A DNA stretch of 19,197 bases from a virus (lineage: Duplodnaviria; Heunggongvirae; Uroviricota; Caudoviricetes): the IMG/VR virus record IMGVR_UViG_2667527789_000020, positions 1-19,197 of that record; one strand, written 5' to 3'. This document shows, piece after piece, positions 3,746 through 14,263 of this stretch. The position numbers and the translations under genes were made by a program. A model generated the notes under the pieces. It ran no database searches. It saw nothing but the letters and a program-made list of their open reading frames with translations, and was not told the origin of the DNA. Every line of letters begins with the position of its first letter. Position 1 is the first letter of the stretch.

Positions 3746-3837
3746 GGATAAACCTCATAACTATTTTAAGGTTGTACGAACCCCTGCCATTGCTGGCATG
3801 CTTAATCAACGGGTATGGCGTTAATATGGCTGGTGGA

Positions 3838-4026
3838 TTATCCAGCCGGTATTTCGTTATTCAGGTACAGCGATACTTTTTTTAACGGGAGGCATTCGCC
3901 AGAAATTTTTTGCTCGTCTCTTGCACGGAGGCATGATTCTTTACTGGCATAAATTCCGGTAATCACATTCTGTGGCTCACCCGTTATAAGAAAAACAGTC
4001 ATTACCAGTGCAAATGCAGAAGTCAC
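3838..4026 (-). CDS. Small hypothetical protein with a hydrophobic N-terminal segment (YdfD-like position after dicB)
   Basis: GTG at 4026 overlaps the dicB-like stop (GTGA); alternative in-frame ATG at 4002. Hydrophobic stretch FALVMTVFLITG. Same strand and tightly coupled within the leftward operon. Identity unknown. Confidence 0.35.
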   Translation of the reverse strand: MTSAFALVMTVFLITGEPQNVITGIYASKESCLRARDEQKISGECLPLKKVSLYLNNEIPAG

Positions 4027-4211
4027 TGCTGCCCCCCGAAAATACCAAGTTTAAGAAGGGCAATTCTGGAGAGTATGGAATTATCATTGAGAAGATAAGG
4101 CTCATATTTTCTCATCTTAATGGCATCTTCAGTAAACTCCCGGTTACTGAGCAGAATACCAATATCAAAACACCCTTCAGACGTATTAACGTTTGGTAAT
4201 AACGTTTCCAT
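4023..4211 (-). CDS. dicB: Cell-division inhibitor DicB homolog (62 aa)
   Basis: METLLPNVNTSEGCFDIGILLSNREFTEDAI... closely matches the N-terminal half of E. coli Qin DicB as I recall it (MKTLLPNVNTSEGCFEIG...FTEDAI), and the length is identical. ATG at 4211 preceded by GAGGA with a 7-nt spacer. Confidence 0.75.
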   Translation of the reverse strand: METLLPNVNTSEGCFDIGILLSNREFTEDAIKMRKYEPYLLNDNSILSRIALLKLGIFGGQQ

Positions 4212-4221
4212 TATCGCGTCC

Positions 4222-4806
4222 TCAACAATGAATTTTTAGTAATTGCTCCACAGTCATATTTTTAATTGCGCTCCGGTTTACAAGAGTCCAGCCTTGTTTC
4301 TCCAGATAAAACTGGAAGGTATCCAGGGTGCAGACCATTGCACCATCAGGAACGGTTTCAGTGAATTTGATATTGCCGTGTTCGTCGAGACGGATAACCA
4401 GGGTACGTCCGTCCCCGTGAATCATTTTGTCGGGAGACGGGGCGTTATTCTGGCGCAGTTCTTTCTCCATGCGATCGAACTCAGCGATGTAGGCTTCTTT
4501 AAATGCAGCGGCTTTTTTGCCGGTGAAGCCCATCACCAGGAAAACGAAGCCGTTTTTGGTGATTTGGTACATAGGGAGTTTGCGCCCGGTTGAGTCGGTA
4601 TATTCACTGGGCGAAAAATTTCGCTCAGTGAATTCTGCTGAACAGTCTAGACGTGAAATTTTTGCCAGTACATCTTTGTGTGGTTTCCGGAAATACTCGG
4701 CAACAGCTAAAGAGGATGTAACAGCACGCCCATTGGCGATAGTAATTTCAGGGTGAGAAAGGGCAGGGATAGTAGCCATGATGGCAGCCTCCATGATGAA
4801 TTTCAT
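4222..4806 (-). CDS. Rha-family phage regulatory protein (antirepressor-like)
   Basis: Core ITIANGRAVTSSLAVAEYFRKPHKDVLAKISRL...MYQITKNGFVFLVMGFTGKKAAAFKEAYIAEF is typical of the Phage_pRha domain. The six-frame ORF extends to 5073 but the first ~90 codons are compositionally non-protein-like and contain a terminator-like hairpin. Likely start is ATG at 4806 (SD-like GGTGGTGAG upstream) or ATG at 4779 (GGAGG, 8-nt spacer). Confidence 0.7.
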   Translation of the reverse strand: MKFIMEAAIMATIPALSHPEITIANGRAVTSSLAVAEYFRKPHKDVLAKISRLDCSAEFTERNFSPSEYTDSTGRKLPMYQITKNGFVFLVMGFTGKKAAAFKEAYIAEFDRMEKELRQNNAPSPDKMIHGDGRTLVIRLDEHGNIKFTETVPDGAMVCTLDTFQFYLEKQGWTLVNRSAIKNMTVEQLLKIHC

Positions 4807-4943
4807 TAACTCACCACCGGAGGTAGCAATCTCATGGGTGGTGAGACGCACAGGGTTGCTACAACCGGTCATCATGGAACCCGGCCAGCCTTGCGGCTGC
4901 CCTGCACGCCCCACCATAATCTGAATGTGGCTGTGCATTACGC

Positions 4944-4968
4944 ATAAAAAAACCGCCTGAGCGCGGTT
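4944..4968 (-). terminator. Candidate Rho-independent terminator on the minus strand
   Basis: Minus-strand RNA would form AACCGC / GCGGTT stem (6 bp, 6-nt loop) followed by a 7-U run (plus-strand A7 at 4946-4952). Lies between the DicF-like element and the Rha start. Confidence 0.4.
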
Positions 4969-5264
4969 ATGCGCCATGATGAACATCGGGGTAGCAATCC
5001 CGGCACCCGCTTTATGAGGTGCAGGTGCACTATAATTCCACCCGTTCTGGTTTTCAATAGCTACATTCAACATTTTCTCTTACCTTTCATCACCGAAGTG
5101 AACTTTGTCGATGCAGTGCCTGGTGCCTCCAGGTGACGTTAACCAGTTAACAATTAACGCCGGAATACAGAAGTATGCCCGTTACGCCCCGTAAAAGACC
5201 ACTTTACGGTTTTAACTGTTCCGCGTGCGCTTAGCCGCATTCACCGCATCACAAAATTCACTTT

Positions 5265-5322
5265 AAAAAGGGCGGACATCAGAAAGCTAATAAACTGATG
5301 CCGCCAAAGGTACCACTGCCAT
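5265..5322 (-). ncRNA. dicF: DicF-like small RNA candidate with intrinsic terminator
   Basis: Minus-strand transcript ...ACCUUUGGCGGCAUCAG-UUUAUUAGCUUU-CUGAUGUCCGCC-CUUUUU: an 11-bp GC-rich stem (one bulge), 12-nt loop and U5 tail. The UUUGGCGG.AUCAGUUU and CCGCCCUUUUU segments resemble E. coli DicF as I recall it. Lies in the same operon and upstream of the dicB homolog, as in Qin. The 5' end is not defined. Confidence 0.45.
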
Positions 5323-5590
5323 TGAAACATGGAGATGTTGTGGCGGGGTTGTCACTCAGGCATATGGTCAACCTGACAACCCGGTGTCCTCAATGAGGGG
5401 AAAAGAAATAAAAACCCCCAGCCATATTTACCGCCGCGCCATTTCGCGGATTGCCACAACCGGAAGCACACGGTCGAAGAAATCTAACGACAAGCCTTCT
5501 AAGGGAAAGAGCTTCGCCGTGCGCTTTCGTGTTATACCCTGACTTTTCAGGGTAAATTAACCAGTGGCAACCTGTTTTTACTGGTGCTAA

Positions 5591-5743
5591 TCAGTTAGTG
5601 TTTCTGGCTAACCAGCGACGCGCGCCAGCTTCGGTTTTAAACTTTTTACTTTTGGTATACGTCATCGCGGTAAACGTGCCGTCCTGGTTAGGGAACACAC
5701 CACATACCAGAGATTCGTTGTTGCCAAGATTGAGCGTATCCAT
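5591..5743 (-). CDS. Small protein (50 aa), YdfA/YdaF-like (DUF1391-like) first gene of the leftward operon
   Basis: ATG at 5743 preceded by GAGG with a 5-nt spacer (TGAGGTCAACATG). The six-frame ORF extends to 5797, but that upstream start has no RBS. Product MDTLNLGNNESLVCGVFPNQDGTFTAMTYTKSKKFKTEAGARRWLARNTN. Family assignment is from position and vague recall only. Confidence 0.5.
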   Translation of the reverse strand: MDTLNLGNNESLVCGVFPNQDGTFTAMTYTKSKKFKTEAGARRWLARNTN

Positions 5744-5923
5744 GTTGACCTCATTTCCCCTTAACGCCGGGGTAGCGGAACAAAAAACCTGCTGCATAGT
5801 TAAACGTAATCCCCGCCGTCATGTTCATACGCCTCAGGCTGGCTACTTAACCCCTGACCACTGCCGGGTAACTCGAAGTATTGCCCTGCGTTCTGTGGGG
5901 CGGGGTGGGTTTATGGATACAAT

Positions 5924-6006
5924 TTACAAATTAAAATTTAACTGGTCAACATGTTTATTATTAAATTTGTAATTGCGAGCTGTTGCATTAGTCCCAAAAT
6001 GGGACT
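5924..6006. promoter_or_regulatory. Candidate operator/promoter region (OL-like, divergent leftward promoter and higBA promoter)
   Basis: AT-rich. Inverted repeat TTACAAATT (5924-5932) / AATTTGTAA (5964-5972), and a second perfect palindrome AGTCCCA-aaa-TGGGACT (5990-6006) immediately upstream of higB. The TTACAAAT half-site recurs in the repressor/cro intergenic region. Confidence 0.4.
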
Positions 6007-6017
6007 ACTATACAGTT

Positions 6018-6320
6018 ATGAAGATTATCTCAGTTAAAACACTCAGGGATTTTTGGGCGGAGAATCCTGATGCAGAACAACCGCTAAGGGCATGGGTGGA
6101 TGAGGCGGCAAAAGCTGACTGGAAAAGCCCAGCAGACATTAAGGCACAATACCGAACGGCCAGTATATTGAAAAACCGGCGCGTGGTATTCAACATAAAA
6201 GGTAATCATTACCGTTTAATTGTTGCAATTGCGTATCAGCGAGGATGGGTATTTGTTAAATTCATCGGAAACCACAAGGAATACGATGCTATTGATGCTG
6301 ATACCATCGAACTGGAGTAA
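6018..6320 (+). CDS. higB: Type II toxin HigB (RelE/ParE superfamily mRNA interferase), 100 aa
   Basis: ...VVFNIKGNHYRLIVAIAYQRGWVFVKFIGNHKEYD parallels E. coli HigB (VFNVGGNELRVVAMV...HKEYD). Directly followed by an HTH antitoxin gene 2 bp downstream. The six-frame ORF starts at a TTG at 5973; ATG 6018 is preferred. Confidence 0.85.
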   Translation: MKIISVKTLRDFWAENPDAEQPLRAWVDEAAKADWKSPADIKAQYRTASILKNRRVVFNIKGNHYRLIVAIAYQRGWVFVKFIGNHKEYDAIDADTIELE

Positions 6321-6322
6321 GC

Positions 6323-6682
6323 ATGAACATCAAACCTATTCGTACAGAGCAAGATTATGAAGCCGCGTTGCGTGCTGTTGAACCCATGTTCGACAATGAG
6401 CCCGAAATTGACACGCCTGAGGGGGATTTTTTTGAGGTGATGTGTTTGCTAATAGAGGAATATGAAAAAAAACATTATCCCATTGAGCCACCATCCCCAA
6501 TTGAAGCTATAAGATTTCGCATGGAACAGCAGGGGCTGACTGTGAAAGATTTGGAACCCGCAATTGGGAAAAAAAATCGGGTTTATGAGGTGTTGAATGG
6601 TACCAGAAGCCTTACGTTACCAATGATTCGCCGTCTTCATAATCAATTTGGTATCCCCCTGGAAAGCCTGGTTGGATTATAA
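6323..6682 (+). CDS. higA: Antitoxin HigA (XRE-family HTH), 119 aa
   Basis: Acidic N-terminal part and C-terminal HTH (LTVKDLEPAIGKKNRVYEVLNGTRSLTLPMIRRLHNQFGIPLESLV). Toxin-first gene order with a 2-bp spacing is typical of higBA. Confidence 0.85.
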   Translation: MNIKPIRTEQDYEAALRAVEPMFDNEPEIDTPEGDFFEVMCLLIEEYEKKHYPIEPPSPIEAIRFRMEQQGLTVKDLEPAIGKKNRVYEVLNGTRSLTLPMIRRLHNQFGIPLESLVGL

Positions 6683-6697
6683 AATCTGCTAGTCATT

Positions 6698-6746
6698 TGC
6701 CTGATGCTCGTTCCAGAAAAGGAATGCATCAGGCAGTTTTGTTTTT
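6698..6746 (+). terminator. Rho-independent terminator after higA (convergent with the repressor 3' end)
   Basis: TGCCTGATGC (6698-6707) pairs with GCATCAGGCA (6726-6735), with an inner TTCC/GGAA stem, followed by GTTTTGTTTTT. Overlaps the stop codon of the minus-strand repressor gene. Confidence 0.6.
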
Positions 6747-7121
6747 CTGCCGCAGTAACTCTTCAAGTTTCCGTTTATAGAAATCGCGTTTTTGCTCCAT
6801 ATCACGAATGATCTGCTCTGCGTCGCTTTGAGGTAACTCATCTAAAAGCGATATGATTTTTCGTTGTTGTTCTGTAAGTTGCGGTTGGTTGTCATTACTG
6901 GATACAGCCATTTTATCGCCGAGAGTTTCTTCTTCCATAAAGAACCAATGGACGGGATGTTGTGAGAGCTCTGCTAATTTTTCCAGTTTATCCATTCTTG
7001 GCATCACGCCTTTCAACCAACCTTGCACGGATTGGGGTTTTACACCAAGACGTCTTCCCAGCTCTGACTGGTTTATATTCAATTCCTGCAACACCTGCTG
7101 AAGGCGTTTTACAAAGATCAT
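6729..7121 (-). CDS. DicA-like prophage repressor (N-terminal XRE HTH, C-terminal coiled-coil), 130 aa
   Basis: HTH LQQVLQELNINQSELGRRLGVKPQSVQGWLKG, then a charged helical tail (EQQRKIISLLDELPQSDAEQIIRDMEQKRDFYKRKLEELLRQ) with the same architecture as DicA. No S24 peptidase domain. ATG at 7121 preferred (GAGGGG, 5-nt spacer) over the in-frame GTG at 7127. Divergent from the cro-like gene. Confidence 0.8.
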   Translation of the reverse strand: MIFVKRLQQVLQELNINQSELGRRLGVKPQSVQGWLKGVMPRMDKLEKLAELSQHPVHWFFMEEETLGDKMAVSSNDNQPQLTEQQRKIISLLDELPQSDAEQIIRDMEQKRDFYKRKLEELLRQKNKTA

Positions 7122-7176
7122 CACCACCCCTCGTAAACTAGTTCCGCGATCCTACAGAAAAAATTGATAAGTGGCA

Positions 7177-7214
7177 TTACAAATAGAAGTTGAAATTTAA
7201 ATTTAAATTTGTAA
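7177..7214. promoter_or_regulatory. Candidate operator (OR-like) in the repressor/cro divergent promoter region
   Basis: Inverted repeat TTACAAAT (7177-7184) / ATTTGTAA (7207-7214) flanking three tandem AAATTT units. Lies in the 126-bp intergenic space between the repressor start and the ydaS-like start. Confidence 0.4.
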
Positions 7215-7247
7215 TCATCGGTGTCATCGTAAAGTTCGGAGGGAAAC

Positions 7248-12912: not shown

Positions 12913-13138
12913 GCTGGCCTGAGGCCTTCTCAAATGTTGGTATTGCAATGGCGCTGGTGGTGTATTCGATTTGCCGCTGGGGATAAAAACGGTTTGCGGG
13001 GAAAGAAGAGTTAAGTAGAATTGCTGCGGGTGCCTGAGGCTGTCTGCCTCAGGCATGAACACCAAAAGGCAGATAGAGAAAGCCCCAGTTAACATTACGC
13101 GTCCTGTAAGACGCTCAACATTAATCTGAGGCATATGG

Positions 13139-14263
13139 ATGCGGATGAAAGAATTAAATAAATTCAGAGTGATAGACCTCTTTTGTGGGGCAGGTGGATT
13201 ATCTTATGGTTTTCTTCATGGAGAGATGTCTGACTACTTTGAAAGTATCCTTGCTATTGATAATAATGCTGCAGCTATAAATACCTACAATGCCAATTTT
13301 GGTTTGCATGGAGTTCAGGCAAATATTGAGGAGTGGGCATCCAGCAATACTGTTCCTGAGGCTGATGTGGTCATAGGTGGCCCCCCGTGTCAGGGATTCA
13401 GTTTATTGAATAAGAATCGTTATGGTGATCACCGAAGAGCATTGTGGGAGCCTTATATGGATGTCATTGAGCGTTCAAGGGCTTGCATGTTCGTCATGGA
13501 AAATGTCCCCGGATTGCTGATAAGCGATGAGTTTGCGGACATTACGTTTAGAGCGAAATCCATGGGCTTTATTCTGCTTAATCCAATGGTGTTGAATACT
13601 GCTGACTATGGAGTACCTCAGACAAGAAAACGAACGATAGCAATCGGTATCAAACGAGAACTCTTCGATGAGCATAGTATTCCGGCGTTCCCGCCAGCAC
13701 CAACGCATCGTTCCCCTGATAAGGATGTCGCTTTGCCTGAATGGGTCTGTACGCGTGATGCAATTGGTGACTTACCTGCTCCTGTTGGAACTGATATTCG
13801 TAATGAACTTCCTCCGCTGAACTTACATTTTGGGCGTAATCCCACACCTGTTTCTCTGGAGCGATATAAAGCGGTTCCACCAGGAGGTAACCGTTTCGAT
13901 TTACAGAAAAAAAGACCTGATATAACCCCGGCGTGCTGGCTAAAAAAGAAATCTGGAGGGACCGATTTGTTTGGACGTCTGTGGTGGGACAGACCTTCAG
14001 TAACGATTCGTACTGAGTTTTTCAAACCGGAGAAAGGGCGATATTTACATCCGGAAGAGGATCGGCCAATAACTCATCGTGAGGCAGCGAGATTAATGTC
14101 TTTTCCTGATAATTTCATTTTTACCGGTTCAAAAACTGAGATTGCAAAGCAGATCGGGAATGCTGTTCCACCGCTATTTGCGGCAAAAATCGCACAATAT
14201 GTGTATGGAGTTTTGCAGGGACGGTATAAGAATAACATCAGTAAGAATAGTCAAGCAGCCTGA
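13139..14263 (+). CDS. DNA (cytosine-5)-methyltransferase, modification subunit of a Type II R-M system (374 aa)
   Basis: Motif I DLFCGAGG (FxGxGG), motif IV GGPPCQGFS (catalytic PC), motif VI ENV, motif X-like QIGNAVPPLFAAKIA. ATG preceded by GAGG with a 7-nt spacer. Visibly more AT-rich than the flanking phage genes. Confidence 0.9.
   Translation: MRMKELNKFRVIDLFCGAGGLSYGFLHGEMSDYFESILAIDNNAAAINTYNANFGLHGVQANIEEWASSNTVPEADVVIGGPPCQGFSLLNKNRYGDHRRALWEPYMDVIERSRACMFVMENVPGLLISDEFADITFRAKSMGFILLNPMVLNTADYGVPQTRKRTIAIGIKRELFDEHSIPAFPPAPTHRSPDKDVALPEWVCTRDAIGDLPAPVGTDIRNELPPLNLHFGRNPTPVSLERYKAVPPGGNRFDLQKKRPDITPACWLKKKSGGTDLFGRLWWDRPSVTIRTEFFKPEKGRYLHPEEDRPITHREAARLMSFPDNFIFTGSKTEIAKQIGNAVPPLFAAKIAQYVYGVLQGRYKNNISKNSQAA

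Follow-up and report, generated by a model that had tools for sequence, protein, structure and literature searches.

A minus-strand hairpin followed by a U-run, in the 19,197-nucleotide stretch of viral DNA analysed here (the window), is probably a rare allele of the prophage slot that holds DicF in Qin and KilS in Rac, and it would serve as both an Hfq-type small RNA and a terminator, with changed targets. This reading was drawn from a full-length match to the DicF model, Qin-like flanks, a stem identical to that of KilS, and the fact that both studied alleles of the slot are real small RNAs. It was also drawn from the occurrence of the same hairpin and loop in a second background, E. coli A8, in which kil lies downstream and the nearby leader is different.

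Operon, hairpin and leader structures

The prophage of E. coli strain 48 (NZ_CP166879.1; locus L001) showed 99.4% identity to window bases 3800-5900, and at least 80% of these bases were present in 236 of 5426 complete E. coli genomes. The minus-strand gene order was obtained from the PGAP annotation of this prophage together with Pfam and Rfam matches, and the features are listed in Table 1. The operon is the early-left operon of a Qin-like lambdoid prophage. Its ydfA-like gene stands alone, as ydfB and ydfC are missing, unlike the ydfA(BC) arrangement of Qin. The DicB homolog that the preliminary description of this DNA had placed at 4023-4211, in the same leftward operon as the small RNA candidate, was confirmed by a full-length Pfam match.

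Table 1. Positions of the hairpin and its neighbouring features in the window, listed in the direction of the minus strand
Feature	Position	Strand	Basis
cI-like repressor gene	7127..6729	-	PGAP/Pfam/Rfam gene order
higBA toxin-antitoxin pair	5973-6682	+ (opposite to operon)	
Region of promoter and operator-like half-sites	5921..5973	-	Promoter scan; 13-mer common with cI–cro region
Promoter-like TTGACC-17-TAAATT, upstream of ydfA-like gene	5949..5921	-	Promoter scan
ydfA-like gene (DUF1391), early-left operon gene 1	5746..5591	-	Pfam PF07151, 101.7 bits; PGAP on strain 48 prophage
Leader of 260 nt between ydfA-like gene and hairpin		-	
Upstream hairpin GGGUUGUCA...UGACAACCC in the ydfA–sRNA leader	5346..5383	-	Single fold and 5-locus consensus fold; 78-87% column conservation
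Candidate small RNA of the DicF/KilS slot, ~56-62 nt	5326..5265	-	Sub-threshold Rfam DicF match; Qin DicF/Rac KilS alignment
Terminator hairpin	5305..5271	-	Sequence; fold, -17.5 kcal/mol
U5 run (UUUUU), intrinsic terminator	5269..5265	-	Nearly invariant in multi-allele alignment
Conserved structured leader after terminator	5100..5264	-	Folds; near-100% conserved helix strands
283-aa "Rha family" ORF	4222..5073	-	Pfam Phage_pRha, 106.6 bits; Phage_ASH, 67.4 bits
Promoter-like site of the cassette	5057..5029	-	Promoter scan, 10/12 matches; ends 7 nt before isrK 5' end
isrK-type RNA	4946..5022	-	Rfam RF01394, 64.7 bits, above gathering score
C4-type antisense RNA (phage P1/P7 immI type)	4834..4921	-	Rfam RF01695, 77.9 bits, above gathering score
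dicB, cell division inhibitor gene	4211..4023	-	Pfam PF05358, 122.5 bits, profile 1-62/62
DUF1482 gene, then RecE-like exonuclease gene, after dicB		-	

Upstream of the ydfA-like gene, the promoter-like site probably corresponds to dicBp and serves as the early-left promoter under control of the repressor. The half-sites ATTACAAAT/ATTTGTAAT flank this promoter near 5921-5973 and are also found in the cI–cro intergenic region (7160-7215), and the 13-mer TTAAATTTGTAAT occurs at both 5961 and 7203; such common operator half-sites would suit an early-left promoter under immunity control, as dicBp is. In the stretch from the ydfA-like gene to the hairpin (5590-5330) the promoter scan showed no promoter-like site, unlike the 98-nt KilS, which possibly has its own promoter and is catalogued as the kilR 5' UTR (PMC8175672). 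Two toxin-antitoxin features were also observed. An inserted higB/higA-type pair separates the repressor gene of the prophage from its early-left promoter, and the strain 48 prophage and a further locus (L002) carry the same insertion. A match to the sok antitoxin RNA at 13028-13208 on the plus strand (RF01794, 61.0 bits against a gathering score of 59) suggests a hok/sok-type locus in the same prophage.

Rereading of the sequence and folding both bore out the minus-strand intrinsic terminator stem and U5 run previously described at 5265-5322. The hairpin has a 5' arm GGCGGCAUCAG (5305..5295), a 12-nt loop UUUAUUAGCUUU (5294..5283) and a 3' arm CUGAUGUCCGCC (5282..5271) with a single bulged U, and one C stands between the 3' arm and the U-run. 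The predicted fold is an 11-bp hairpin with a z-score of only -2.1 against shuffles of the 69-nt stretch, so that folding energy alone is weak evidence; that the hairpin is not a chance fold follows from homology, namely the full-length DicF model alignment and the Qin-matching flanks. It was absent from the terminator scan of the window because its 12-nt loop exceeds the 8-nt loop limit of that scan.

The U5 run is the likely Hfq-binding 3' tail, and the 3' end of the candidate small RNA was placed at this run. DicF itself is bound by Hfq and is cut by RNase E from the operon transcript at its 5' end, and its 3' end is formed at the terminator or by RNase III cleavage of read-through RNA (PMC5069750, PMC10448788). 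The DicF RNase E site AAU/UUUC was not conserved at the aligned position of the window, and the 5' end of the candidate may be 5320, the aligned DicF 5' end, or 5326, a GU/UUC RNase E-like site. Just upstream of this presumed 5' end, the motif CCACAACAUCUCC was observed at 5334-5345 on the minus strand. It includes CACAACA, which resembles the consensus target motif of the GcvB seed, and it would be relevant only if the RNA starts further upstream than proposed here.

Downstream of the terminator, the leader at 5100-5264 was the most conserved part of the locus, with counterparts in Rac (L127 2725-2905) and Qin (L128 3936-4100), and it was common to Qin, Rac and other prophages irrespective of whether the next gene was dicB, kilR or the isrK–C4–antirepressor (ant) cassette. 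An 18-bp long-range helix (~5258-5241 with 5118-5100) closes the leader around two inner hairpins, and both of its strands were almost invariant in Qin, Rac, E. coli A8 and an IMG/VR contig (L041). By analogy with the Qin data cited in PMC5069750, this helix is probably the place of the RNase III cleavage from which the longer isoform of DicF arises. The STnc100 model (RF02076) matched the leader only in part (model 30-148/206, window 5249..5111) at 29.1 bits, below its threshold of 47; matches in related loci scored 29.5-40.4 bits, and several of them overlapped the 3' arm of the DicF-like hairpin.

The Rha-family gene noted earlier between the small RNA candidate and dicB is present as a Phage_pRha gene; it is not a lone gene, as it is part of an isrK–C4–antirepressor cassette that has a promoter-like site of its own and starts right after the 18-bp long-range helix. 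The arrangement is like the C4/IsrK module (phage P1/P7 immI; Gifsy-1 IsrK), with isrK and C4 upstream of a Rha-domain antirepressor-like gene. The Rha domain covers residues 119-204 only of the 283-aa ORF, and the Phage_ASH match (residues 14-109) covers exactly the isrK and C4 DNA. Since the N-terminal third of the ORF overlaps isrK and C4, the true start is probably further downstream; the annotated start is probably over-extended, with candidate ATGs near 4806 and 4779. Sub-threshold "c4-a1b1" matches overlapped isrK in related loci. The cassette is a neighbour of the small RNA element and a separate insertion that assorts independently of it, and it was also found beside canonical DicF in two loci (L056, L067).

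Comparison with DicF and KilS

DicF (Rfam RF00039) is encoded by dicF (b1574) in the Qin prophage of E. coli K-12 (L128 3883-3935). At the gathering threshold, the Rfam search showed no DicF match in the window. In E-value mode, the DicF covariance model aligned over its full length (1-52/52) to window positions 5318..5270 with 36.4 bits (E = 2.5e-6, 571 nt searched), which is below the Rfam gathering score of 48 bits and places the element outside the DicF family by Rfam's rule. As positive controls, canonical DicF from phage Tritos scored 72.5 bits and the L002 allele, with a compensated GGUGG/CCACC stem, scored 61.1 bits, while all remaining allele classes scored 28.6-42.9 bits. The sequence points clearly to a relationship with DicF even below the Rfam gathering score. 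The earlier proposal of a DicF-like small RNA thus held in so far as the minus strand carries a positional and sequence homologue of dicF with a full-length, sub-threshold model match; it has to be amended in that the gathering score was not reached and the stem equals the KilS stem, not the DicF stem.

An alignment of the window with Qin K-12 (dicF), Rac K-12, E. coli A8 and the IMG/VR contig L041 showed near-identical sequence flanking a variable core on both sides. Between window and Qin, the identity was 86% in the upstream flank, 63% in the 5' single-stranded segment, 67% in the loop and inner 3' arm, 12/12 in the terminator base CCGCCCUUUUUA and 85% in the downstream 150 nt. The statement that the sequence around the hairpin resembles DicF therefore agrees with these flanks and this terminator base. 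The window element and DicF occupy the same slot, after ydfA(BC) and before the conserved leader and dicB in a repressor-controlled leftward operon, and both have the identical GGCGG...CCGCCCUUUUU terminator base and a 3' stem-loop followed by a U-run, of the Rho-independent terminator type. They differ in the stem, which is a perfect CAUCAG/CUGAUG helix in the window and is interrupted in DicF, and in both pairing regions, as the loop and 3' arm that pair with ftsZ and the 5' seed that pairs with xylR have been replaced. Unlike in Qin, the isrK–C4–ant cassette lies between the window element and dicB. Faubladier and Bouché are said to have described dicF-related sequences in Rac and other genomes in 1994, and four dicF copies were reportedly found in EHEC by Melson and Kendall in 2019; given the 1994 report, the general idea of dicF relatives is old.

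At this position in Rac, K-12 has the annotated ncRNA kilS (b4833) at 1418405-1418502 (L127 2906-3003), whose end falls on the U5 run found in the window too. Hfq RIL-seq data led to the prediction of KilS, and a northern blot confirmed it (Bar et al. 2021, PMC8175672). There is no covariance model of KilS, and the comparison was made by sequence identity. The stem GGCGGCAUCAG/CUGAUGUCCGCC and the U5 are identical in the window and KilS, and the terminator base is identical (12/12) to that of both DicF and KilS. Both elements are in the same slot with the same downstream leader, in the leader of a prophage division-inhibitor gene and directly upstream of the conserved structured leader. However, the window loop UUUAUUAGCUUU has 12 nt where the KilS loop UUUUUUUCUUGAAGUUCGG has 19 nt, the 5' segment is unrelated (~50% identity), and the loop and inner 3' arm are 64% identical to Rac. 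By sequence identity to the whole 98-nt KilS, the window element is not a KilS copy, as stem and terminator alone are common to the two. Its upstream flank is also Qin-like and not Rac-like (86% against 50%).

Between K-12 Qin and K-12 Rac, DicF and KilS share the syntenic slot, the terminator base and the downstream leader, and to judge from these sequences they look like alleles of one locus. In the literature searched, no paper was found that named both KilS and DicF, and PMC8175672 carries no mention of DicF.

Variation of the slot among prophages

A scan of IMG/VR with the invariant downstream flank gave at least 120 loci. In every locus among the matches listed (at least 120), a hairpin and U-run stood just upstream of the flank, and at least 49 distinct sequences were present. 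All 49 listed alleles folded to a hairpin, with energies of -10 to -24 kcal/mol, and a double compensatory change at the stem base (C-G to U-A; GGCGG/CCGCC to GGUGG/CCACC) was present in 4 of the 49. The 5' segments were of at least four types and the hairpin tops of at least six, in differing combinations, and these parts recombine across the listed alleles: a KilS-type 5' segment was joined to a DicF-type hairpin in L074 and L089, and the window-type hairpin was joined to three different 5' segments in L029, L064 and L108. The next gene after the slot was dicB, the isrK–C4–ant cassette or kilR, and it varied independently of the allele. A column-conservation profile of 92 loci showed no sharp valley, the abundant canonical allele being dominant, and pairwise segment identities were more useful. 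Published surveys of dicF compared copies that were more than 99% identical (PMC5069750).

The canonical DicF allele was present in 3948 of 5426 complete E. coli genomes. By megablast, the KilS class was present in 1427 and the window allele in 5 of the same 5426 genomes, and the window allele was found once each in IMG/VR and in a metagenome collection. Among its carriers are E. coli strains 48, FHI_NMBU_10, 04-00955 and 2015C-3121. With one exception, its copies come from the same prophage lineage (at least 99% identity over 2.1 kb), and with a near-single lineage conservation says little about selection on the sequence of this allele. The exception, E. coli A8, has the identical hairpin and loop, three changes in the 5' segment, kil downstream and a different variable leader segment. 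Several unnamed slot alleles in IMG/VR (for example L041, L064, L122 and L029) resemble the window allele in having the common stem and related loops (UUUAAUUGCUGG, UUUCAUUGCUGG), and L041 also has the 5' segment CUCCAUGUUGAUUGGUACCUUU and, as in the window, a downstream isrK–C4–ant cassette. Compared with these alleles, the window has a 10-nt insertion (UCAAUGGCAG) in the 5' segment and 3-4 changes in the loop. Among species-representative genomes, the KilS-type stem was restricted to Escherichia and Shigella, except for two metagenome-assembled genomes labelled Proteobacteria bacterium and Candidatus Nanosynbacter.

This pattern bears on whether the element is an RNA with targets at all. It could be a plain intrinsic terminator or attenuator that limits read-through into ant and dicB, with an inert released RNA and allele differences due to neutral drift. 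The stem base and U-run alone are nearly invariant across the 49 listed alleles, the L018 allele has a minimal 6-bp hairpin, the non-canonical alleles all score under the DicF gathering score and the window has no complementary cis target of at least 12 nt, all of which fit such a terminator. We nevertheless consider it less likely, as both alleles with published studies, DicF and KilS, give RNAs that accumulate, associate with Hfq and act on targets (PMC5069750, PMC8175672). The alleles also form discrete conserved classes, with 1295 of the 1427 KilS-class genomes at least 99% identical to the query, and the window hairpin and loop are unchanged in E. coli A8 despite the different adjacent leader.

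A second alternative, which appears improbable, is a cis-acting processing or stability platform made up of the upstream hairpin, the terminator hairpin and the long-range helix, which would set the level or translation of the downstream mRNA and have no trans targets. The whole 300-nt leader is indeed strongly structured (z = -3.6; 0 of 100 shuffles folded as well), the flanking helices are better conserved than the small RNA core, and a 5' UTR is how KilS has been catalogued (PMC8175672). On the other hand, the downstream module is interchangeable (dicB, kil or isrK–C4–ant) independently of the allele, and the next genes of the window have their own promoter-like site (5057..5029), which together weaken the case for an allele-specific cis role.

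Pairing segments, predicted targets and proposed mechanism

According to mutational analysis, DicF uses its 3' region to pair with the ribosome-binding site of ftsZ and its 5' end to pair with xylR (PMC5069750). The preliminary description had reported a difference from DicF in the 5' region and had taken that region to target ftsZ; the 5' region does differ, but ftsZ pairing lies in the 3' part and the 5' end pairs with xylR (PMC5069750), and the 3' part differs too. In the window allele, the ftsZ-pairing segment ACUCCGUGACUGCUCUGCC of DicF is changed to UAGCUUUCUGAUGUCC and the DicF 5' segment UUUCUGGUGACGUUU is changed to GGCAGUGGUACCUUU.

Targets were scanned with RNAduplex hybrid energies combined with opening energies from unpaired probabilities, a crude method, and 37 start regions of the ftsZ neighbourhood served as a small background. 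This accessibility-corrected scan replaced plain RNAduplex against ftsZ, which gave long loopy duplexes for every allele. For ftsZ, DicF reached -8.2 kcal/mol (nt 31-53 on -28..-7) and the window allele -2.9 to -3.4 kcal/mol; for xylR, the values were -14.1 kcal/mol (nt 4-15 on +8..+20) and -6.8 kcal/mol, and for pykA -12.1 kcal/mol (-18..0) and -8.0 kcal/mol, respectively. Among the 37 start regions, ftsZ ranked 6 for DicF and 37 (last) for the window allele. The DicF sites found by the scan on ftsZ and xylR agree with those in PMC5069750. For the window allele, the published DicF sites on ftsZ, xylR and pykA were not recovered by the duplex scan, and the best sites were at unrelated positions. 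The direction of this result is clear, and the modelled energies indicate that the known DicF target sites are not retained in the window allele.

It is therefore highly improbable that the element still works as a DicF orthologue, with repression of ftsZ translation and filamentation of the cell, as implied earlier: it shares the DicF slot and the full-length sub-threshold model match, its base CCGCC is able to pair with the GGCG at position -28 of ftsZ and pairing of UUUCU with AGAAA right before the start codon is conceivable, but the segment ACUCCGUGACUGCUCUGCC that pairs with the ftsZ ribosome-binding site (PMC5069750) is replaced by UAGCUUUCUGAUGUCC, and its best ftsZ energy was the worst of the 37, whereas DicF reached its value at the published site.

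Under the preferred reading of a rare DicF/KilS-slot allele that acts as a small RNA and terminator, lifting of the repressor would lead to transcription from the operator-flanked promoter (~5949..5921) through the ydfA-like gene, as the half-sites suggest. Part of this transcription would stop at the hairpin and U5 (5305..5265), which would limit read-through into the toxic genes. By homology with DicF, an RNase E cut near 5326-5320 would release an RNA of ~56-62 nt, and the 18-bp long-range helix that follows would be the cleavage site in transcripts that read through. Like DicF and KilS, the RNA may bind Hfq via its terminator hairpin and U tail, and it could pair with host mRNAs via the single-stranded 5' segment GGCAGUGGUACCUUU and the loop UUUAUUAGCUUUCUGA. 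As both pairing segments have changed and the DicF sites were not matched, the computed energies point to a different target set with direct ftsZ repression probably lost, and division inhibition would then rest on DicB.

Three further candidates were considered and rejected. A site upstream of yacM, with an 11-bp match to the 5' segment and -18 kcal/mol, was at about chance level for the amount of sequence scanned and antisense to coaE. For a C4-like cis target in the prophage itself, the window contained no complementary run of at least 12 nt and chance 10-11-mers alone, and the downstream modules assort independently. Identity with a Pas small RNA (PasA-D) was set aside as those RNAs are in the late region near Q, esterase, holin or structural genes; the Pas paper mentions neither DicF nor dicB.

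DicF is a textbook prophage small RNA that is usually treated as one conserved sequence, and the slot described here holds many classes, only one of which is recognised by the Rfam DicF model. Tentatively, and with somewhat less confidence than would favour it outright, the slot may be viewed as a modular hypervariable small RNA cassette with a fixed terminator base and flanks, in which Qin- and Rac-type prophages exchange 5' segments and hairpin tops, so that each would deliver a different host-targeting small RNA. On this view the window allele would be functional and re-targeted away from ftsZ, DicF and KilS would be alleles of one locus, and Rfam annotation would be missing most of the classes. 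If the alleles are active, E. coli strains would differ in the host mRNAs that can be silenced by derepressed resident prophages, and the presence of a dicB operon would not imply repression of ftsZ by an RNA. The consequence for the window itself is small, as it carries a rare allele of a known locus; the broader pattern, in which DicF and KilS would be alleles of a single modular cassette that recombines and is mostly missed by Rfam annotation, may deserve a survey.

One further IMG/VR allele (L018 2817-2886) combines the 5' seed of canonical DicF, UUUUCUGGUGA, with a hairpin of minimal size, GGCGGAAAUGGAUAUCCGCC, without the whole ftsZ-pairing loop and 3' arm, and is in this respect a natural "xylR-only" DicF.
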